Source of the DNA: Thermoanaerobaculia bacterium
GTDB lineage: Bacteria; Acidobacteriota; Thermoanaerobaculia; Gp7-AA8
Assembly: GCA_035576005.1 (NCBI GenBank)
Contig: DATLXH010000128.1
Span: 5,257 to 69,256, forward strand
Direction of reading: 5' to 3'
DNA: 64,000 nucleotides
Positions 16,417 through 26,124 of this stretch are shown here, piece by piece. The notes under the pieces are model-generated. The model made no database searches and was not told the DNA's origin. It saw only the letters and a program-made list of their open reading frames with translations. Each line of letters begins with the position of its first letter. Positions within the stretch are counted from its first letter, which is position 1. The position numbers and the translations under genes were made by a program.

Positions 16417-18153
16417 CTACCGGACTGCGCGTCTTCTCGCGCGGTTCGTGACGACGAACAAATACCCGTCGTTCTGCGTGTAGATGCGCCCGTCGTCGCC
16501 GATCGACAGAGGTGTGTATGCCGCTCCCAGCGCGAGCCTGAGAAAGATTCGTTGCCGCAGGGTACCGCCCTGGTTGATCGCGTAAAGATGGCCGTCTTCG
16601 CTGTTGGCATACACCACACCACGCCGATCGACCGCGATTGCATTGACACACCATTCGAACCCGTTCGGATGGTCCTCGCTGCACTGCACGACGCCGTTGT
16701 CGCCCCGTGCGCAACTTTTCGTCTCTTTGTTCTGATGCTTCCACTCCACTGCCAGTGAAGAGCTCAGCTGGGTGATGAAGTACGCTTCCGGATCGTTCGG
16801 AGTCACCGACGTTCGGTCGCGGGGACATTGCGTGTTGTCGAAACAGTACGACCCCACACCGTAACGGTTCTCCTTGATCACAATGGAGTACGTGCCATCG
16901 TGCTGATAGATGGCGGGAGTCAGGTCCCATCCAAACCCGTAGGCTCCGACGTAGCCTCCGTTCGGATTGAACATCATGAGATGGCCCTGCGCGTAGTTGT
17001 ATCGCGTGTAGGCGCCGTACAGGATCTTTCCATCGGGAGTGATGGTGGGCGAGGAACTGGAATTGTCGAGGACGCGCCCGGAGCCTGGCTGATTGTCCGA
17101 GGGGTCGACTCCCGTGATCGCGTCAATTCGACAGCCTCCTGGAGATCCATTCGGCGGAATACTGACGTTGCATCCGTCGGAGAAGCGGTTGCGAAGGCTC
17201 GCCGCCCACTTCGGCGTGAGGTTGGGATTGACCGCCACGAGATAGCCCCAGCGATCGTTCAGATGCGCGCGGCTGATCATATAAATCGTGCCGTCGGATC
17301 CGACCGCCGGTGCGACGTTGATTCCCGGTCGCTGCGCTCCGCAGCGTGACTCCGGAGCCACGGCATCGCGGCTGGGAGGGTGGGGAAGGGGAAGCGCGGA
17401 CGTGAATTGTGTCGCACACAGAGCGCTGGCCAGTGGTGCACCGGGTGTCAGCGACTGAAAGGTCGCTCTTGTCACGTTCCCATTCGAACCAACTTTCACC
17501 AGCCACGAGTTGGGCGGGTCGGTGGACCAGGGGGATTGACTGTTGAGCTGAATCGCCGTGTAGTAGACGTTGCCTGAGTCATCGAGCACCGGTGGCCCGG
17601 CGGTGAAGACCGAGGGATTCACCTCGCCGAAAGGATTGAAGCGCGTGATGAGCTTGCCGTCCTCCCGGCTGATCTTGTCAATCGAGCCGCCGAATGCGGG
17701 AGCCCAGACAGCCTCCCCGGTGATCGCCGTGTGATAGACAGGCTCCCACGAGGGGCCGGGGCTACCCCAGGGAACCGGCTTCCAATCCGTCGTGTAGGTC
17801 CAGCGGGTCACGAGGTGACCGCCGGTCCTTCGGAGGTTATGGACACTCCAGGTCTGCGTCTCCCGTGTCGTCGGGCCCGTGTAGGTGCCGCTCTTGATGA
17901 CGACGAAAGCATCACTGCCGTCTACGAGCGGGGCCTGGTAGTGAACGAGGAGGTTTCCGCCGGCGTTCGCCTCCTCCTGGTCGGCGAACGGATCGAGGAC
18001 AATTTCATTTTCAATCAGATCGAGTGAGCGGCCCGCGGCGGAGGAGTTGTTGTCGTGGCGTGGTCCGCGGCCCCACTGCGCCCATTGTGCAAACACGGGC
18101 TCGGTGATCAGCAGAGCAGTGAGTGATACGAGAAGGGGAAGGGAATTGGGCAT
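16417..18153 (-). CDS. secreted beta-propeller (PQQ-like repeat) protein
   Basis: Signal peptide and repeated G-x-hydrophobic-Y-A motifs (GHLYAINQGG, DGRIYTQNDGYLFVV). Length 578 aa. Confidence 0.65.
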   Translation of the reverse strand: MPNSLPLLVSLTALLITEPVFAQWAQWGRGPRHDNNSSAAGRSLDLIENEIVLDPFADQEEANAGGNLLVHYQAPLVDGSDAFVVIKSGTYTGPTTRETQTWSVHNLRRTGGHLVTRWTYTTDWKPVPWGSPGPSWEPVYHTAITGEAVWAPAFGGSIDKISREDGKLITRFNPFGEVNPSVFTAGPPVLDDSGNVYYTAIQLNSQSPWSTDPPNSWLVKVGSNGNVTRATFQSLTPGAPLASALCATQFTSALPLPHPPSRDAVAPESRCGAQRPGINVAPAVGSDGTIYMISRAHLNDRWGYLVAVNPNLTPKWAASLRNRFSDGCNVSIPPNGSPGGCRIDAITGVDPSDNQPGSGRVLDNSSSSPTITPDGKILYGAYTRYNYAQGHLMMFNPNGGYVGAYGFGWDLTPAIYQHDGTYSIVIKENRYGVGSYCFDNTQCPRDRTSVTPNDPEAYFITQLSSSLAVEWKHQNKETKSCARGDNGVVQCSEDHPNGFEWCVNAIAVDRRGVVYANSEDGHLYAINQGGTLRQRIFLRLALGAAYTPLSIGDDGRIYTQNDGYLFVVTNRARRRAVR

Positions 18154-18206
18154 GTGAAGATTCTAACCGTCGCGCTCTGCGTCTCGTTCCCGCGAGGGAG
18201 CGAGCC

Positions 18207-18689
18207 TCACCGCCGTATGACATTCCGCGCGTCCGCGGAGAATGGTATGTCGATCACCCCGATGATCGTCCTGTAGTGCGCATTTCCCCGAATCGTGTAA
18301 CGGCTGTCCCCACCTCGGAAGCGGTCAGCGATCTCACCAACCAGCTCGCGCAGCTCATCCCCGCTCGCACGCGCAGTCAGCTGCAGCGTGCCGGAGCCGC
18401 GCGCCGGAAGATCGATTTTCTCGGTCGAGCGGCCGCGCATCACTCTTCGATCGTTGACCAGTAGCTCGAAGTCGATCCCTTCCAGTTTGACTCGAATGTC
18501 GTTCTCGTTGCGAACCCGGAGCGTCGCGTCAGCCTCGACGATCGAGGCAGAAACGGGAATGGCAAATGAGAAATGCGGCCTGATCTCGTCCACCTCGTAA
18601 GAGAACTTCTCGGGGTCAATGTCCTGTAGCGAGCTACGGCAGGCCAGGGAAACGAGAAGGAGCAGCGGGAAGAGCATTCGTCTTCGCAT
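18207..18689 (-). CDS. LEA_2/WHy-like small lipoprotein
   Basis: Lipobox LLLLVSLAC and a ~150-aa beta-rich body. Placement is by similarity to bacterial LEA14-like lipoproteins only. Confidence 0.5.
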   Translation of the reverse strand: MRRRMLFPLLLLVSLACRSSLQDIDPEKFSYEVDEIRPHFSFAIPVSASIVEADATLRVRNENDIRVKLEGIDFELLVNDRRVMRGRSTEKIDLPARGSGTLQLTARASGDELRELVGEIADRFRGGDSRYTIRGNAHYRTIIGVIDIPFSADARNVIRR

Positions 18690-18779
18690 GGCCGTCTTTT
18701 TTGCAACGCCGGGGCCAGAGGGCGCGACGTCCAACGAAGCGATGCTGGAGACGCCAGCATGTCCTCGCGAACCTGTTGC

Positions 18780-18897
18780 GAAGCTTTGGAGTGCGGCAGC
18801 CGCAGCTGCCGCTCTCTGCGTCGAACGCGCGCGATTGAAAAATCCTCTCCACGTGACTCAGAAAGCGGCAGCTGCGGCTGCCGCACTCCAAAGGCTT
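18780..18897. other. long stem-loop (34-bp arms, ~49-nt loop) in the intergenic region
   Basis: GAAGCTTTGGAGTGCGGCAGCCGCAGCTGCCGCT ... AGCGGCAGCTGCGGCTGCCGCACTCCAAAGGCTTC. Confidence 0.45.
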
Positions 18898-18929
18898 CGC
18901 CCGGCTACAATGAAGAGAAGATTGCTCCG

Positions 18930-19727
18930 TTACTTCGCGTGGACCTGAGCCGCACTAGCGGCGTAGATGCGGAGGGTCTTCGGGTCCTGCAGGAATGCTG
19001 CAACGCCGAGGTTGTCGGTCATCCACGCCTTATCGAGATTGAATGTTGTCGAGCCGTTGTTGCTCGAGCCCGGAGCAAGCGACGAGACCTTCGTCAGTTT
19101 CCTGACGACAAAATCATTGCGCAGCTTCCGTCCCGAGTTCTCACCCTTCCGGACGTCTGTGATGACGCTGTTCTCGAAGAGCGCCACCATGAGGTCGAGA
19201 GCAGTGGAATTGATTGTCGTATCGGCACGAGCATCGAGATCGACATGCAGTGTGGTCGCACGGTCAGCTGGGTTTGTCACTCTGAATCTGATCTGAGCTG
19301 CGGGGGTAACTCGAAGAGCTGCGTCGATCTGCTTTCTGATGACTGCCGAATCGGAGCCGACTCCCTGCGTGGTGCCATTCACGACCAGCTGCGGTGTGTA
19401 GACCTGGCTCGAGCGAAAGACCTGCGCGTAGCTGTTCTGCCGGCGCGACCAATCGGCAGAGGAGAACGGATCGGACCAGCCCAGGCGGTTCCAATAGTCG
19501 ACGTGAAAGGCCAGGGGGAGCACCTTGCCGCGCAGGCTCCGATCTGAGCCAAGCGCCGTGAGCAGCTTGTCTGCCGATGGGCAGCTCGAACATCCCTGGG
19601 AGGTGAAAAGCTCGAGTACCACCACGGGAGCAGACGTAGCCCCTCGATCGGCAGCGGAGGCATTGGATGTCGTGGAAAGCGTCATGGCAGTGAGCCAGAG
19701 GAGAGTGATCCGTTTCAAGGTCATCAT
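18930..19727 (-). CDS. DUF1223 family secreted thioredoxin-fold protein
   Basis: Signal peptide and the ELFTSQGCSSCP CxxC motif characteristic of DUF1223. Confidence 0.75.
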   Translation of the reverse strand: MMTLKRITLLWLTAMTLSTTSNASAADRGATSAPVVVLELFTSQGCSSCPSADKLLTALGSDRSLRGKVLPLAFHVDYWNRLGWSDPFSSADWSRRQNSYAQVFRSSQVYTPQLVVNGTTQGVGSDSAVIRKQIDAALRVTPAAQIRFRVTNPADRATTLHVDLDARADTTINSTALDLMVALFENSVITDVRKGENSGRKLRNDFVVRKLTKVSSLAPGSSNNGSTTFNLDKAWMTDNLGVAAFLQDPKTLRIYAASAAQVHAK

Positions 19728-19756
19728 GCTACTTAGACGCGACTCGCTCACGATCG

Positions 19757-20644
19757 TCACACCCCAGCTTGTTCCAGCGGGTGCTGAATGAGCTGCAGAA
19801 AGTTGCCGACGAGGAAGGGATCGTGAAATGTTCCGGCGCGAGCTTTCAGGATCTGCATCGCAGCTTTCTGATTTTGTGATTTCTGATAGGGGCGGTTCGT
19901 GGAGATGGCGTCGTAAGTATCCGCGAGCGATGTCATCTGACTCGCGAAGTTCGGCCGGCGCGGTCGCGTGAGAACCGGGTAGCTCGGCACTCCGTCATAG
20001 CGCAGATGATGTTCGTAGGCGACCAGGATTGCGAGGGGGTTTGTCGCCTCCATACCGGCCAGGTGCCAGGCCCCCAGCTCGGCATGACCTGTCATGATTT
20101 TCCACTCCTCATCGTTCAAACGGCCATTCTTGTTGAGCACTTCGAGCGGCACGTTCAACTTTCCGATGTCATGTACGAGCGCGGCGAGTCCGAACTGCGC
20201 CAGCTGGTCTCCCGAGATGCCGAAACTTCTCGCCTGAGCGAGTACGAGAAGCGAGACGTTGATCGAATGAACGAACGTATATTCGTCGTGTTCCTTGAGA
20301 GGAGCCAGAGGCAGGACCTCCCGGGTTGAGCGCGAGAGCGAATCGATCAGGCTCCAGATCATCTCCTGCATCGGCCCCAGCCCACCCGCCCCTTCACGTC
20401 GTATTCTGACGAATGCCTCGCGGACCGAATCCACTTTCGAAGCAGTCAGAGGAGTATGAGGATTGTGGTCGACGCGTTCCGGCGACTCCTCGTCCAATGT
20501 TCCCGCTTCAATGCGGCCGACCACGACATTCGCGCTCGCGCGCGGCTTGCCCTCGCCAATGAAGGACTGGACGAGCTCGTCCGACTCCTCGAGCGTGATC
20601 CCGCTGCTGAGTGTCAGGCGTTCCACCCCTTTTCGTTTCAGCAC
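19757..20644 (-). CDS. HD-GYP domain c-di-GMP phosphodiesterase (coordinates give the GTG-initiated core; a conserved in-frame N-terminal extension reaches ~20893 with no canonical start)
   Basis: HD motif (ALVHDIGK) and HHLRYDGVPSYP (GYP-like). The upstream in-frame stretch, without ATG/GTG/TTG, is homologous to the N-terminus of the neighbouring HEAT-repeat protein. Confidence 0.75.
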   Translation of the reverse strand: MLKRKGVERLTLSSGITLEESDELVQSFIGEGKPRASANVVVGRIEAGTLDEESPERVDHNPHTPLTASKVDSVREAFVRIRREGAGGLGPMQEMIWSLIDSLSRSTREVLPLAPLKEHDEYTFVHSINVSLLVLAQARSFGISGDQLAQFGLAALVHDIGKLNVPLEVLNKNGRLNDEEWKIMTGHAELGAWHLAGMEATNPLAILVAYEHHLRYDGVPSYPVLTRPRRPNFASQMTSLADTYDAISTNRPYQKSQNQKAAMQILKARAGTFHDPFLVGNFLQLIQHPLEQAGV

Positions 20645-20900
20645 CTGAACGAAATGTTGCTGGTTGAGGCTTCCTTTCCGCAGCGGCTGCTGGTCCGCTA
20701 CGAGATCGTCCCCAACGAGGAGGAACGTGATTGCATCGCCCCCGCGCTGCGTGGTGAGGGCCTTGAGCGCTTGACGAATCCTCTCAGCCGCTTCGACCGA
20801 CCGAGGGTGACTCGCTCCGTACAGAGCCCGAAGGTTGATCGCTCGTGAGACGGCGTGAACGACGCCTTCGATCAGTAACGTGGTCTGGCTGGTATCCGGC

Positions 20901-23195
20901 TCAGGCAGGAGTGACCCCTCTCATCGTTTCGTCTCCTCGCAAAGCCGGCTCTTTGCCGGAGCGTGTTAGATGCATGCTGATTTTGCGGATCTCGGGATCC
21001 CGCGACTTCAACCCCCGGCTCACGATCTCGGCACGAGCCGATGGAGGGTACCCCTCGAGCGACTTGTAGGCCGCCCGGCTTTCATGAATCGAGACCGGCA
21101 GGAATCGCTTTTGAAAAAATTGGTCCAGTCGTTCCAGTGCAGTGGCATCTCCCAATTCGCCGAGGGCCTTGAGCGCCTTGATGCGAAGGGAGCGACGGCG
21201 CCCGAACAAATCCGACCGGTCGAGAATCTGCAGCAGAGGCTCGACCGCTTCGCGGATGCCGTAGCTCCCGACCAGTACCACGGCCGCCTCGGCAAGCTTC
21301 GGATCGGGATCATTGATCGCCTTCCTGAGCAGCTCATGCGGCACCTCGGGATCGAAGGCGAGGAGGCTCTTGATCGCCTCGAACCTCACCCGGAGATCGG
21401 TATGGTGGGCGCACCGGCGGACCTCAGTCATCGACGAGCGGTCGCCTACGTTGCGAAGCAGGACGATCATGTTCCGAATCACGAACCAGCGATCGTCACT
21501 CAGAAGACGCGTAGCCTCGGGGACGATGATGCTGCCGAGCGACGAGACGAGATTGTAAAGTTTTCGCCTCCGCGAGCGGTTCTCTTCTGCGGCAAGAGCC
21601 AGGAGGAACCTCTGTGAAGCGACGCCGCCGAGGGCTTTTACGAGCTTGTCGAGAGAAGCTTGAGCGGCGCTTCCAGGTGTCTGGCTTTCCAGTAGTCCCG
21701 TAATCGCCTCCTCGGTGACAAGCTCTCCGAAGAACTGTGTGAGCTCTTCGTTTTGAGGCGCGCTTGTGGCGAGGGTCGATCCGAAATCCTGTAGCGAGCG
21801 CACGAGCTCCAAAGCCTGATCGATCTGGCCGTTGCTCAGGTAGAAGTGAAAAACGTCGTGGAGCTGACCGAGGGGACCTGCGAGAGCGAGTCGTGCCCCG
21901 TGTCGTGAGATCAGTTCGAGCAGTGTCGATGAGACGTTGTCCGTAGCGCTTCCTGGCGTGACAGTATCGAGGCGACGTGACAGCTCTTCCCTCGAGTACT
22001 CCGTCTGCTGAGCGACTTCGGGAAAACGGAGGGCGATCTCGCCGAGCAGAGTCTGATGATCCTCGGGGTTGAAGCGGTCGATGTCCTCGTCCCGCAAGAG
22101 CACCATCAGCTCGGCAGCCAGCGAAGAAGATTCCTCGTCTCTCGCCCGCTCGGCTGGGTGATCTTTGCTGATGACGGACAGTGCCCGTGCGAGACGGAGC
22201 GCATGCGAGGAGAGCGTCGAGCCCTCGGCACGGACCTGTCGCATTGCTTTGAGCACGATGTCGGGAGGCATCGAGTTACAGAGGACCTGGAGCGCCTGCC
22301 CGGCGGCTTCGTCGGAAGTGAGCGCTCGCATGGCAGCGGTGAGGACCGTTTCTCTCATCTCCTCCGGAAGAGCGCGTAAAAGTTCGGCCACCTGTTGAGC
22401 AGCAACCTTGCGCGAACCGCCGTCGCTCCGCGTCAGATAGCTGCTCACTGCTGCGGCAACGGATGAAGCCAGGTTTCCCGCTTGAGACTGGCGGCCGGTC
22501 ACCATGAATCCGCCGATTTCGTCGAAGGGTGAGTCCGACCATTCACCGCGGTCGTCGGCTACGTCTGCCACCGATGGCGCGCTATCGCTAACCTGAGCCT
22601 GCAGCAGCTCAGCTACCAGTTGAGAGATCTCTCCGGGACCCTGCGTCGTGAGTCGATGCGCGCCCTCCTGCGACAGACGTTTTCCCGTCAGCAGTGCCTG
22701 AATGAGTGCATCCCGGAGCGAGGCCGGCCGATCCGGAGGTAGTGATTGCTCCAGACCTTCAGTGGCTCGTATCGCCGAGTAGTCGACGGGTTGGAGTCCG
22801 ATCTGACGAACACCGGCGGATGTCATCTCATCCCAGAACGGAATTCGAGCTCGAGCGGGGTCGGATCCAAGCGCTCTCAAAAAAATATCCAGCTCTTCTG
22901 CGGTGACGGCTCTTCCGATCCGCAGGAGCGCGACGTCTCGCATATAAAGAGCCTGGGCGAATTTCTGAGCCTGGTCGAAATCGAGTCTCTGATCATTGAA
23001 AATGAGGCCATCGCGGCTGACCCCGACCACCAGGTCGCCGATGCTGCCGGTCAGCTTGCCCAGGCGCCCCAGGACCGTCTCGATGGCCCCATCGAGAGCC
23101 GGATGCCCTTTCGGATACGCGCCGAGCTTTTTCCACGCGATCGCGAGACCTCGGACTACGTCTGACAGCAGCACGATCACCGACTGATCAGGCAT
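20901..23195 (-). CDS. HEAT/PBS-lyase-repeat protein with an N-terminal domain paralogous to the HD-GYP N-domain
   Basis: 764 aa. The C-terminal third has HEAT-like repeats (DLRVRFEAIKSLL, DPDPKLAEAAVVLVG, LRIKALKALGELGD). The N-terminal MPDQSVIVLL...HPALD...LT aligns with EPDTSQTTLL...HPRSV...LT of the HD-GYP extension. Confidence 0.65.
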   Translation of the reverse strand: MPDQSVIVLLSDVVRGLAIAWKKLGAYPKGHPALDGAIETVLGRLGKLTGSIGDLVVGVSRDGLIFNDQRLDFDQAQKFAQALYMRDVALLRIGRAVTAEELDIFLRALGSDPARARIPFWDEMTSAGVRQIGLQPVDYSAIRATEGLEQSLPPDRPASLRDALIQALLTGKRLSQEGAHRLTTQGPGEISQLVAELLQAQVSDSAPSVADVADDRGEWSDSPFDEIGGFMVTGRQSQAGNLASSVAAAVSSYLTRSDGGSRKVAAQQVAELLRALPEEMRETVLTAAMRALTSDEAAGQALQVLCNSMPPDIVLKAMRQVRAEGSTLSSHALRLARALSVISKDHPAERARDEESSSLAAELMVLLRDEDIDRFNPEDHQTLLGEIALRFPEVAQQTEYSREELSRRLDTVTPGSATDNVSSTLLELISRHGARLALAGPLGQLHDVFHFYLSNGQIDQALELVRSLQDFGSTLATSAPQNEELTQFFGELVTEEAITGLLESQTPGSAAQASLDKLVKALGGVASQRFLLALAAEENRSRRRKLYNLVSSLGSIIVPEATRLLSDDRWFVIRNMIVLLRNVGDRSSMTEVRRCAHHTDLRVRFEAIKSLLAFDPEVPHELLRKAINDPDPKLAEAAVVLVGSYGIREAVEPLLQILDRSDLFGRRRSLRIKALKALGELGDATALERLDQFFQKRFLPVSIHESRAAYKSLEGYPPSARAEIVSRGLKSRDPEIRKISMHLTRSGKEPALRGDETMRGVTPA

Positions 23196-23289
23196 CGAGA
23201 GAGATTCTAGCCCGCATTCAACGCCTTTGATCGCCCACTTTAACGAGTATGCGTGAATCGCCCTTTGCTCGACGGTTGCTGCACTGTTT

Positions 23290-23681
23290 GAACTTTCTCA
23301 CAGACTTCGCCGCGAAGCCGCGTGACAGACGAGAGTTCTGTCTGACATACGCGTGAGGACTGACACTCCTGTGGTGTCACGCGACACTCTCGTTGGTCGT
23401 CCTGGGGCGACCTTCGCCGCGAGATGGCCGAGAGCGGCCTGGAAGCGAGGCGCACGACGGTTTCGCGACGAGAGCATAGTTGCCACTGTGTCGAGAGCAA
23501 CCGGGGCGGGTGTAGGGACGCAGGGCCTGCGTCCGGCACCCAGACATTCGCATCAGGAATTCTGCATCCGGGCATGAAACCCTCGTCCAAAGCGATGGCC
23601 GACGACAATCTTCCCGGTCAGGGACAGGGTGCCGGACGCACGTTGTGCGTCCCTGCGCTCGCATTCTGTGAGAAATGCGGG
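23290..23681. mobile_element. MITE family B copy 2, carrying a nested ~92-bp insertion (23313-23403) flanked by an 11-bp duplication CTTCGCCGCGA
   Basis: 23404-23681 aligns to 16065-16326. The left terminus TTTCTCACAGACTTCGCCGCGAAG sits at 23293 and is separated from the body by an insert containing a GACAGAC...GTCTGTC hairpin. Confidence 0.5.
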
Positions 23682-23743
23682 TTAAGCTGGGCCCAGGCTC
23701 GCGCTGAGCTGGTAAAAGACAGTGCGGATCAGGGAACACGACC

Positions 23744-24352
23744 ATGGACAAGCTCGACGCGGTGGGGTGCAGAATCATTGGCTCATTGATCGAAAAGCAG
23801 CTCACCACTCCCGACAACTACCCCCTCACCCTCAATGCTCTGGTCGCAGCCTGCAACCAGAAAACGAATCGCGAGCCTGTCACTGAGCTGGGAGAGGATG
23901 AAGTCTCTCGCGCTCTCGATCGACTGCAGCAACGCTCGCTTGCATGGCGAGTGCTCGGAGGACGATCGGTACGCTGGGACCATAACGCTGACAAACGATG
24001 GCTTCTGACGCCGGAAACGAAGGCGCTGATCGCCCTTCTGCTGCTTCGCGGCCCTCAAACCTCGGGCGAGCTGCGGAGCCGGAGCGATCGAATGTTTCTC
24101 TTTGAATCGATCGACGATGTGGAAAGCGCGCTGCGTGCGCTCTCTGGCCGTGACGAGCCGCTCGTGGCGTCAATTCCCCGTCGGGCCGGTCAAAAAGAGG
24201 ATCGTTGGATATCGCTGGCGGGCGACATCCCGCCGGACGACAAACCGGCCCGAGCCTCGGAGGCGATGGAAGTTCGACTCGCTCGCCTCGAGGCGCTGGT
24301 TGGGCGGATGGAAGCTGAGCTGGCCGAGCTCAAATTGAAACTGGGCGAGTGA
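23744..24352 (+). CDS. yceH: YceH/DUF480 (UPF0502) family protein
   Basis: PLTLNALVAACNQKTNREPV...SE..V matches the DUF480 signature. Coiled-coil C-terminus. Confidence 0.8.
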   Translation: MDKLDAVGCRIIGSLIEKQLTTPDNYPLTLNALVAACNQKTNREPVTELGEDEVSRALDRLQQRSLAWRVLGGRSVRWDHNADKRWLLTPETKALIALLLLRGPQTSGELRSRSDRMFLFESIDDVESALRALSGRDEPLVASIPRRAGQKEDRWISLAGDIPPDDKPARASEAMEVRLARLEALVGRMEAELAELKLKLGE

Positions 24353-24357
24353 GCTAG

Positions 24358-24527
24358 CTCGCATTTCCTTCGGACCTTCGCGCGAAGCGACCGATAGCGG
24401 CCTGTCTGAATCGCTGCACAACGCTTAGCTCCTCGACATAGTGTCGACTATGTCTTCGTCGCAAAACCGTCGTGGTATCCAGGCCACTCTCCGCCGCCTC
24501 ACAACGAAGGTCGGTGAGAGGTGCGGG
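24358..24527. mobile_element. degenerate MITE family A copy
   Basis: Central CTCGACATAGTGTCGACTATG core and GGTCGGTGAGAGGTGCGGG right terminus, with diverged left terminus. Confidence 0.4.
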
Positions 24528-24535
24528 CTAGAGGC

Positions 24536-24934
24536 TCAGGCGTGGCGCATGTGCCGCTCGACCGAGCCATAAAAATCGCTGGCTCCGAACGGTTTCGGCA
24601 TCACTCCGCACGAGCGACCTTCCAGATCGCTGAGCCGGTCTTCGCCAGCGGCGCTGATTACGAGAACGTGACCCTGAAGACACTGCATCTCGCTGTCGAT
24701 GAAGTCCAGCACGTCCCATCCCGACTTCCTCGGCATCATCAGGTCAAGAACGACAAGATCGAAATTGGAGCTGCCATTCTCGGACGTTTCGCTCTGGAGT
24801 ATCGCGATTGCATCCTCGCCGTCAACTGCTTCGGTGGTCTTGTAGCCTCTCCGCCTCAAAAGGGTGGCGATAAGATTTCGAAGCGTCGGATCATCGTCAG
24901 CAACGAGAACGTTCAGAGTGTTAGGACTTGTCAT
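24536..24934 (-). CDS. single-domain response regulator (CheY-like receiver)
   Basis: VLVADDDP...D (phospho-acceptor in LVVLDLMMP)...K receiver signature. Length 132 aa. Confidence 0.8.
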   Translation of the reverse strand: MTSPNTLNVLVADDDPTLRNLIATLLRRRGYKTTEAVDGEDAIAILQSETSENGSSNFDLVVLDLMMPRKSGWDVLDFIDSEMQCLQGHVLVISAAGEDRLSDLEGRSCGVMPKPFGASDFYGSVERHMRHA

Positions 24935-25055
24935 GTGTCATCCCGCGTCAAGTGACGCTCGACGCTTCTGTGCAAGGGAAGTGCACAGTTTCACAGGCCC
25001 CGACCTCGTGCTGTCGGCTCAAGCCGGAGTTTCCCTCGAACGGAGAAACTTATTA

Positions 25056-25230
25056 CCCGCATTTCTCACAGACCTTTGTCGTGAGACGGCGGAGAGTGGC
25101 TTGGATGCGAGGCGCACGGCGAGTTTGCGACGAAGGCATAGTCGACACTATGTCAAGGAGCGAAATTGCCGTGCAACGAAGCAGACAGGCCGCTATCCGT
25201 CGTCTCGCGGCGAAGGTCTGCTTCGGGCGG
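25056..25230. mobile_element. MITE family A copy (right terminus degenerate)
   Basis: CCCGCATTTCTCACAGACCTTTGTCGTGAGACGGCGGAGAGTGGCTTGGATGCGAGGCGCACGGCG... is identical to other copies. Confidence 0.55.
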
Positions 25231-25287
25231 CCTGAACCGGACAGACCCGCCGCGAAGCGAAGGGTCTGTCCCATGAATCGTCAGTCC

Positions 25288-26124
25288 TCAGGGCTTTGTC
25301 GCAGGTGCCGTCGTAGTAGTCGGAGGGCGACGACGAAAGAGACTGCGCATCCGCTGGCGTGCGGTAGGTTTCGCCGGTGCAGTTGCTGTCGAGTTCGTGA
25401 CGGCTACGCTGCCATCCGCTCTCTGACTGATCGAGACGCCTCCGCTCCCGCCGGACGTGGCGACCTCGCCTGCTGCAGTGTTTGATGATGTCGTGCTGCT
25501 CGAAACGGAGCTGGTAGCCGCTGCAGCTCCAGCGGGCGGTGGAACAGCCGCTCGCGTCGGTGACGCGATCGTCACGGGTCGTTCAGCACGGGTGGCCGGA
25601 ACCGAGCTTCCTGCCGCATTGGAACGAGGCGACGAGCCGGACGTCGGCGCGAGATCTACGCTCACGGCTGGGGTCGTGGAGATCGTGTTGCTGCCTCCCG
25701 CCACCCTGGCCTGCACGCCAGTCGAATCGGTAATAGGCGTTGCTCCTACAGTGGGCTCGGACGGAACGACCGCGCCAGCAGGATTGATGACGGTCCCCGT
25801 AACGGACGAACTGACATTGGACGTAGGAGCCACGGTAAGTCCCGTGGTGCCGGCGACAGTTGTCGTCCCGGGCTGCGAGACCGACCCTCCCGTAGCGGGG
25901 CTGGTGGTACCGAGATACCTCGTCTCGTCCGTATAGCCGGTTGCTGCAGGCGCCGGGGCCGGGGTCGAAGGAACCGTTGCAGCAACCGTAGTCGGTCCCG
26001 ACGCGGCAGGGACTTGTGCAGTTCTCACCGCGTCCTGGCTAGTCGCGCAGGAGGTCAGTGCAAGTGTTCCGACGAGTAATGCGGGAGCAATGGAACGTTT
26101 CACTGCAGCGGCTGTGCGATCCAT
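25288..26124 (-). CDS. Thr/Ser/Ala/Pro-rich low-complexity lipoprotein
   Basis: Lipobox LALTSC followed by ~250 aa of low-complexity TSPA-rich sequence. Confidence 0.55.
   Translation of the reverse strand: MDRTAAAVKRSIAPALLVGTLALTSCATSQDAVRTAQVPAASGPTTVAATVPSTPAPAPAATGYTDETRYLGTTSPATGGSVSQPGTTTVAGTTGLTVAPTSNVSSSVTGTVINPAGAVVPSEPTVGATPITDSTGVQARVAGGSNTISTTPAVSVDLAPTSGSSPRSNAAGSSVPATRAERPVTIASPTRAAVPPPAGAAAATSSVSSSTTSSNTAAGEVATSGGSGGVSISQRADGSVAVTNSTATAPAKPTARQRMRSLFRRRPPTTTTAPATKP

Follow-up and report, generated by a model that had tools for sequence, protein, structure and literature searches.

How is a conserved protein made from a gene that has no canonical start codon ahead of its first folded domain? 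This question is raised by two adjoining genes in a stretch of 64,000 nucleotides (nt) of DNA, here called the window, which belongs to contig DATLXH010000128.1 (assembly GCA_035576005.1), a metagenome-assembled genome (MAG) of an uncultured member of the Thermoanaerobaculia (Acidobacteriota). Both genes lie on the minus strand, a gene for a HEAT-repeat protein first and a gene for an HD-GYP protein, a predicted cyclic di-GMP (c-di-GMP) phosphodiesterase, next, with the frame of the second at +1 relative to the first. The HEAT gene (20901..23195) extends from an ATG at 23195 to a TGA at 20903-20901 and encodes 764 amino acids (aa). The HD-GYP frame is closed upstream by an in-frame TGA (20921..20923) and stays open from 20920 until the stop at 19759-19757, so that it overlaps the last six codons and the stop of the HEAT gene; its first canonical start codon is a GTG at 20642..20644. 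The product deposited at NCBI (P0002, 289 aa) begins at the GTG thereafter, 20626-20624. The analysis described below leads to the conclusion that this call is truncated, with about 94 residues cut off. The gene, of about 383 aa in full length, appears to be translated without a canonical start, most likely from a CTG at 20908 that is coupled to termination of the HEAT gene. For the explanation as a whole, namely a full-length HD-GYP protein made from a near-cognate start, most probably CTG 20908, within a coupled HEAT/HD-GYP module, a probability of roughly 0.6 seems appropriate.

The start-less stretch as coding sequence

In the initial annotation, the frame upstream of GTG 20644 was described as open for 83 more codons, back to a TGA overlapping the HEAT stop. 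The openness is correct, and codons 20920-20645 indeed contain no ATG, GTG or TTG; the length is 92 codons, and the closing TGA does not overlap the HEAT stop but precedes it by 18 nt. A protein search with the extended HD-GYP sequence returned 741 homologues. The best 120 were inspected, and these, P0002 apart, have 359-397 aa and cover 92-98% of the query, including the N-terminal stretch. The closest orthologue (P0001, locus L001; 82% identity) is likewise devoid of a canonical start. Its junction reads ...GAGGGGG-N7-CTG CCT GAG CCG..., with the same upstream in-frame TGA and the same HEAT stop as in the window, and its first canonical start, a GTG 15 codons past its CTG and inside helix 1 of the protein, is the one used by its gene caller. 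In L001 as well as in L002 and L164, no canonical start is met up to codon 16.

The ratio of nonsynonymous to synonymous substitution rates (dN/dS) was calculated according to Nei and Gojobori for the window versus L001. For the 76 codons from ATC 20872 to GTG 20644, dN/dS amounts to 0.069, at a dS of 1.13; the values are 0.11 for the rest of the N-terminal region and the linker (112 codons), 0.045 for the HD domain (180 codons) and 0.43 for the 12 codons between CTG 20908 and ATC 20872. Neither an indel nor a stop separates the two sequences over the compared regions. As had been proposed at the outset, selection acts on the start-less stretch as protein, and it is purifying; the low ratio without indels or stops indicates long-standing translation of the stretch in both lineages. 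A recent loss of the start codon, one of the options initially put forward, is ruled out, for the loss is common to two lineages that are apart by a dS of about 1 or more. Translation, coverage by the orthologues, and the dN/dS values against L001 together define the proposed full-length gene of 383 codons (19757..20908).

Were the deposited annotation correct, translation would begin at GTG 20644 or 20626 to yield 289-295 aa, and the similarity upstream would be a decaying relic. These two are the first canonical start codons of the frame, the NCBI pipeline selected GTG 20626, and a modest Shine-Dalgarno (SD)-like score of -5.6 is associated with that codon. A relic is difficult to reconcile with the constraint on the 76 upstream codons, in which neither lineage has acquired a stop or an indel. 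Furthermore, GTG 20644 is not the real start, since it is located inside a helix (H81-92) of a domain predicted with confidence (predicted local distance difference test score, pLDDT, about 93). This N-terminal domain is present in the listed orthologues apart from P0002 and the caller-truncated P0001; orthologues that start at the GTG behind a decayed upstream region, which would have spoken for a duplication relic, were not encountered, all of them carrying the domain. Initiation at either GTG is thus very unlikely.

As the source is a MAG, and a G homopolymer resides within the overlap of the two genes, one might also suspect that an error of sequencing or assembly destroyed the start codon or created the frame offset. 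An independent Logan assembly, made from run SRR7741809, however agrees with the window across the junction at all 606 aligned nt (100% identity), which shows that the junction is not an assembly error. The sister lineage is start-less alike in three unrelated samples, the junction of L001 being identical in ENA ERZ27252426, Logan SRR6263202 and JGI 3300012680. An artefact deserves next to no credence.

Orthologous junctions and translational coupling

Scans of genomes and metagenomes gave 163 related loci, 73 of them with an N-terminally complete orthologue of at least 40% identity; start codons were compared at 58 distinct junctions, and stop-to-start distances at 55 distinct loci. The HEAT gene is found directly upstream of the HD-GYP gene in 69 of the 73 loci, and in the remaining four, the sequence available upstream is shorter than 150 nt. 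The codon aligned to ATC 20872 of the window is ATG at 47 of the 58 junctions, TTG at one and GTG at one, while at seven further junctions a canonical start is situated one or two codons upstream of the ATC equivalent (for example, GTG-ATC in L085). Two loci, L099 and L100, read ATG-ATC-GAG where the window has CTG-ATC-GAA. In the outgroup (L003/L165, 63% identical), the position is occupied by ATC, with an ATG 16 codons upstream. No canonical start is available only in the L001 type and in the window. For identification of the initiating codon this alignment is more informative than the earlier remark that GAG stands where the paralogous HEAT protein has ATG, because it is ATC 20872 that occupies the ATG position of most orthologues, the L001 type being the only other case in which a canonical start is not found there or elsewhere.

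The distance between the two genes is narrowly confined. Counted from the HEAT stop, the HD-GYP gene starts at a position between -8 and +12 nt in 51 of the 55 distinct loci (93%), the commonest distances being +2, -4 (ATGA), -1 (TGATG) and +3; CTG 20908 of the window, at -8, falls within this range. SD-like duplexes of -6 kcal/mol or stronger precede 42% of the orthologue starts, compared with 14% of random coding positions in the window. Because the spacing of HEAT stop and HD-GYP start is tight and SD-like duplexes are enriched, tight translational coupling of the pair is regarded as ancestral. The arrangement represents a conserved two-gene module of the Thermoanaerobaculia, in which a HEAT-repeat protein is followed by a predicted HD-GYP phosphodiesterase, both opening with an α/β domain of about 125 aa. 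Among distant loci, four (L025, L027, L028 and L036; about 30% identity, two of them from Nitrospirota MAGs) have a HEAT-like gene with the N-terminal domain directly upstream; in other distant loci, from Vicinamibacterales and Gemmatimonadota, no HEAT partner was detectable by tblastn.

The spacer between the HEAT and HD-GYP genes in the outgroup (L003:4583-4680 and L165:2432-2560) is built of tandem heptamers, GAGTACC being repeated four times in L003 and five times in L165. The reverse complement, GGTACTC, follows about 40 nt further with four or five copies, such that a long hairpin would be formed. The copy number differs between these two strain variants of the same sample.

The initiating codon

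With no ATG, GTG or TTG at its disposal and yet under strong selection as protein, the HD-GYP gene probably initiates at a near-cognate codon, and the start would most likely be the CTG that overlaps the upstream stop. Three near-cognate codons are kept in both lineages, CTG 20908, CTG 20875 and ATC 20872. The first of them (20906..20908) overlaps the HEAT stop by 8 nt, as CTGCCTGA, and is part of a block of 14 nt (20897-20910) that is invariant among the window, L001, L002 and L164; the same geometry is seen in L106 with ATGGCTGA. Moreover, it is the single codon among the three that is preceded by an SD-like element. In the window, this is the purine/G run GAGAGGGG (20915..20922), located 6 nt upstream of the CTG, and in L001 it is GAGGGGG, 7 nt upstream. 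The corresponding duplex energies are -6.6 and -9.2 kcal/mol, respectively, against a background mean of -2.9, whereas the other two candidates score near zero (+0.4 in the window, -2.5 in L001). Translation from this CTG would yield MPEPDTSQTT-LLIEGVV..., a protein of 383 aa, and AlphaFold2 places the beginning of helix 1 at residue 6 of this product, upstream of the ATC. In the outgroup, a similar Pro/Thr/Ser-rich N-terminal extension is started with ATG. The SD-like run, the -8 geometry, and the invariant block make CTG 20908, which the initial annotation had mentioned among its options, the best supported codon, and we tentatively take it as the start, at odds that fall slightly short of even for this particular codon.

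Several observations weigh against this assignment. Conservation offers no means to choose between the near-cognate codons, for both lineages keep CTG, CTG and ATC alike. SD-like scores as strong occur at 3-14% of random positions, the value of -6.6 kcal/mol being reached by about 14%, and the SD-like run is part of the coding sequence of the HEAT gene (Arg-Gly), for which it may be conserved. The tail of 12 codons between CTG 20908 and ATC 20872 is only weakly constrained, as given by its dN/dS of 0.43. In most orthologues, the start falls at the place held in the window by the ATC or by the CTG that precedes it. Finally, the start-less state is known from two independent lineages only; its conservation rests on these two because no relatives nearer than L001 (82%) and L003 (63%) were found in the genome and metagenome scans.

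Some of these points lead to a different choice, a near-cognate start at the ancestral position, i.e. ATC 20872 or CTG 20875 (20870..20875), with the 28-31 nt after the HEAT stop as an untranslated spacer. The product would begin M-E-G-V-V..., the commonest N-terminus of the family, and the alignment of the ATC with the ATG of 47 of 58 orthologues, the match of CTG-ATC-GAA to ATG-ATC-GAG of L099 and L100, and the weak constraint on the upstream tail are all in keeping with such a start, as is the nearly equal efficiency with which AUC and CUG serve as starts in E. coli (10.1101/063800). These codons are, however, found 25-28 nt past the HEAT stop, outside the interval of -8 to +12 nt that holds for 93% of the orthologues, and nothing resembling an SD sequence precedes them (duplex energies of +0.4 kcal/mol in the window and -2.5 in L001). 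In addition, the 36-nt tail has remained free of indels and stops between lineages at a dS of about 1 or more, the predicted helix 1 begins upstream of the ATC, and the outgroup L003 translates the equivalent extension. A start at the ancestral position is considered less probable.

Initiation at CTG 20908 would fit a sequence of events that begins with an ancestral HD-GYP ATG within a few nucleotides of the HEAT stop, the genes being translationally coupled. In the lineage of the window and its 82%-identical relative, the junction would have been remodelled: the HEAT protein would have acquired a disordered tail of about 20 aa, and the ancestral ATG would have turned into ATC, with no canonical start left upstream of the domain. 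Initiator tRNA would then start at a near-cognate codon, most probably CTG 20908, which retains the order of SD-like purine run, start, and overlap with the HEAT stop (CTGCCTGA). In E. coli, the initiation rates of CUG and AUC reach approximately 1-2% of that of AUG (bioRxiv 10.1101/063800). Ribosomes that terminate on the HEAT gene could re-initiate at CTG 20908, and such re-initiation could raise this low rate, while the weak start codon would lower the ratio of enzyme to scaffold. We infer both the codon and the re-initiation from the arrangement of the junction.

In this context one should recall that bacterial genes with near-cognate starts are known; infC and pcnB start at AUU. Like these, the HD-GYP gene codes for a conserved protein and lacks a canonical start, the near-cognate codon is kept between lineages, and the weak start would plausibly set a low level of expression. 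Annotated starts of the types CTG, ATT, ATC and ATA have been compiled (10.1101/063800). In the window, the candidate codon overlaps an upstream stop, so that re-initiation rather than de novo initiation may be the driving process, and no autoregulation of the infC/IF3 type is apparent. With the translationally coupled pairs of the ATGA and TGATG types, the window shares the geometry, CTGCCTGA being at -8 just as ATGGCTGA in L106; it differs from them in that the restart codon would be CTG, instead of ATG, GTG or TTG.

Frameshifting as an alternative

No start codon at all would be required if ribosomes passed from one gene into the other by a programmed +1 frameshift inside their overlap of 20 nt, for example with tRNA-Gly slipping on A GGG G (20918-20915). 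The fusion protein would have about 1,140 aa and about 126 kDa, with the junction peptide ...DETMRGSLLPEPDTSQ... (...GDETMRGSLLPEPDTSQ...). To enter the HD-GYP frame from that of HEAT, a ribosome would have to shift by +1 between 20904 and 20920; the HD-GYP frame has exactly this offset, and is open from 20920, just ahead of the G-run. Both the G-run and the overlap are kept in L001. The tail of the HEAT protein (residues 751-764, pLDDT below 50) together with the N-terminal tail of the HD-GYP protein would provide a plausible flexible linker, and the C-terminal extension of the HEAT protein that reaches into the HD-GYP frame arose in the same lineage.

The classical example for comparison is prfB (RF2), with which the junction shares the +1 frame offset, a UGA in the 0-frame, and an SD-like G-rich element upstream. 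In prfB, this stimulator is placed 3 nt from the codon at the stop site. In the window the distance is 8 nt, and a slippery codon of the CUU-U type is missing at the stop, where the sequence is CCU GCC UGA G. A shift at this very site, as proposed in the initial annotation, is mechanistically poor because GCC is unable to re-pair on CCU, and only a slip on the upstream G-run is conceivable. The codon after the G-run is an ordinary one (GUC in the window, AAC in L001) and offers no pause signal, and in L001 the slip would be from GGG to GGA, which is poorer. Folding of the junction RNA gave z-scores of -0.8 to +0.9, without a stable or conserved structure. Furthermore, the fusion is not conserved: in all 55 other orthologous loci the genes are separate, each with its own start, and no fused orthologue is present among the best 120 of the 741 homologues. 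Frameshifting is improbable on these grounds. If it did take place, HEAT protein would be present in the cell both free and fused to HD-GYP, and the frameshift efficiency would set the ratio of the two forms; this would represent a recoding switch in a c-di-GMP signalling module.

Two related mechanisms were considered and discarded. Read-through or recoding of the TGA cannot join the HEAT and HD-GYP proteins, as their frames differ. Transcriptional slippage would call for a longer G-run than the 4-5 present.

The shared N-terminal domain

The similarity between the N-termini of the HEAT and HD-GYP proteins was already perceived in the initial annotation; it is weak in pairwise comparison and robust between profiles. 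Pairwise BLASTP gave 30% identity over 117 aa (E = 8e-4), the aligned region spanning GTG 20644. When the profiles were aligned with hhalign, 110 columns were matched at a probability of 97% (E = 1.1e-10); with the alignments made by the tool itself, the probability was 95% (E = 2.5e-8). Reversed and eight column-shuffled controls gave P >= 0.09, by which a compositional artefact is ruled out. The N-terminal domains of the two proteins are homologous.

The same topology, ααβββαβαβ, is predicted by AlphaFold2 for both. In the HD-GYP protein, the domain comprises residues 6-131 counted from CTG 20908 (20516..20893), with the elements H6-29, H35-55, E59-65, E68-71, E74-76, H81-92, E97-101, H106-117 and E128-131, and with pLDDT values of 85-97 over residues 11-130. 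In the HEAT protein, hhalign and AlphaFold2 delimit it to about residues 1-136 (22788..23195), with H4-26, H32-52, E55-60, E63-66, E69-71, H74-85, E88-93, H99-110 and E132-136, and pLDDT values of approximately 84-93 over residues 11-110. A joint alignment revealed Tyr30 and His34 as invariant throughout both families; they belong to a Y-x3-H-P motif, which lies in the loop connecting helix 1 with helix 2.

No sequence match to this domain of about 125 aa was found in Pfam, NCBIfam or the PDB, such that its earlier description as an uncharacterised module is justified; it is undescribed in these libraries. The domain of the HEAT protein alone had no match at E <= 1e-3 in a large protein database. 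With a joint profile, 6,057 cluster representatives (clusters at 50% identity) were obtained at E <= 1e-3, and 1,356 at E <= 1e-10. Three architectures can be distinguished, the domain followed by HD-GYP (about 370-470 aa), the domain followed by HEAT repeats (about 700-900 aa), and GGDEF and AAA_16 with two N-terminal-type domains and HEAT. The third group is exemplified by P0288 (1386 aa) and P0300 (1417 aa), in which a GGDEF diguanylate cyclase and an AAA_16 ATPase are joined to the domain, present twice in tandem (in P0288 at about 666-800 and 822-960), and to HEAT repeats at the C-terminus; the histidine of the Y-x3-H-P motif is not kept in their copies. Proteins rich in TPR motifs that appear among the top profile matches (P0163 and similar) are repeat-driven false positives rather than members of the family.

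The domain occurs as tandem copies in one protein and as one copy on each of two co-translated partners, and it is associated with enzymes that make and that degrade c-di-GMP. From this distribution we infer that it may pair with itself, so that the two homologous domains would tether the HEAT scaffold to the phosphodiesterase.

The HEAT and HD-GYP proteins

Assignment of the HEAT protein rests on the list of open reading frames (ORFs), an orthologue alignment of 36 members, a Pfam match to HEAT_2 (E = 1.1e-10, with two stretches), and the AlphaFold2 model, in which an all-helical repeat region covers about residues 235-746 at pLDDT values of mostly 83-97, as expected for a solenoid.

The catalytic domain of the HD-GYP protein (19817..20287) is recognized by Pfam HD_5 (E = 6.4e-14) and HD (E = 1.8e-8), each of which passes its curated cut-off, by a profile match to the GAF-HD-GYP protein PmGH (4MCW, E = 1.8e-33), and by Foldseek matches to 4mcw, 4r8z, 9rbz and 3tm8. 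In agreement with an HD fold and its metal-binding His and Asp residues, H214, H246-D247, H275, H300-H301, D305 and D330 are invariant in 46 sequences. The motifs defined for HD-GYP proteins are HHExxDGxGYP and, for the binding of c-di-GMP, KPG and RxxK (10.1101/2021.11.05.467447). The GYP signature of the window (19970-20010, residues about 299-311) reads EHHLRYDGVPSYP, in which DGVPSYP is one residue longer than DGxGYP; Y310-P311 are invariant, and the glycine before Tyr-Pro is replaced. KPG appears as KNG in the window protein and as NKPGKL in most orthologues, and RxxK is present as RPYQK. The protein is predicted to be a c-di-GMP phosphodiesterase.

PmGH, Bd1817 (DUF3391-HD-GYP, 3TM8) and RpfG (REC-HD-GYP) have the same C-terminal catalytic domain and the same layout as the protein of the window, HD-GYP being preceded by a helical linker and, at the N-terminus, by a domain of about 130 aa. 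REC, GAF and DUF3391 are the catalogued N-terminal partners of HD-GYP, and the fold of DUF3391 has been described (10.1101/2021.11.05.467447). According to Pfam, the N-terminal domain of the window protein matches none of REC (PF00072), the GAF families or DUF3391 (PF11871), and its topology, ααβββαβαβ, differs from that of DUF3391, in which four β-strands are followed by two long helices. A further difference from PmGH, Bd1817 and RpfG is that the domain is common to a separately encoded, coupled partner, the HEAT protein.

Neighbouring features

The gene order GDSL lipase, REC, DUF480, HEAT, HD-GYP, DUF1223, LEA_2 is common to the window, L001 and L164. At 19757-19762, the DUF1223 ORF opens with a GTG (19760-19758), with which the stop of the HD-GYP gene, TGA (19759-19757), overlaps. 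About 30 nt past this GTG, a sequence like a signal peptide, MMTLKRITLLWL, begins, which makes the true start of DUF1223 uncertain. Between the DUF1223 gene (18930..19760, minus strand) and the LEA_2-like gene (18207..18734, minus strand), there is an inverted repeat of 39 nt (18784-18822 and 18855-18893), 95% complementary and with a loop of 32 nt. It resembles a microRNA-precursor hairpin in Rfam, at a score below the gathering threshold, and its arms are not repeated elsewhere in the window. Scanning of 18000-26000 against Rfam revealed neither a c-di-GMP riboswitch nor any other family, and a scan for promoters and terminators gave nothing above chance.

Implications

The absence of a canonical start has consequences for annotation. 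In the Logan contig of SRR7741809 (L166), the gene caller returned no HD-GYP gene after the HEAT gene, only an antisense ORF of 127 aa, which illustrates that a missing start codon can conceal a gene from standard pipelines. As standard callers shorten the gene (289 aa at NCBI, 365 aa with others) or miss it entirely, the N-terminal domain would be overlooked in domain censuses for this lineage.

What appears to be new is an HD-GYP enzyme with an undescribed accessory domain that it has in common with its operon partner, and with a near-cognate start that seems to be naturally conserved. A naturally start-less gene that has survived a dS of about 1 or more should be useful for studies of near-cognate initiation and of termination-reinitiation outside the model organisms. 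The N-terminal domain itself is a candidate interaction or sensor module, which may join a scaffold to the enzymes that make and break c-di-GMP.

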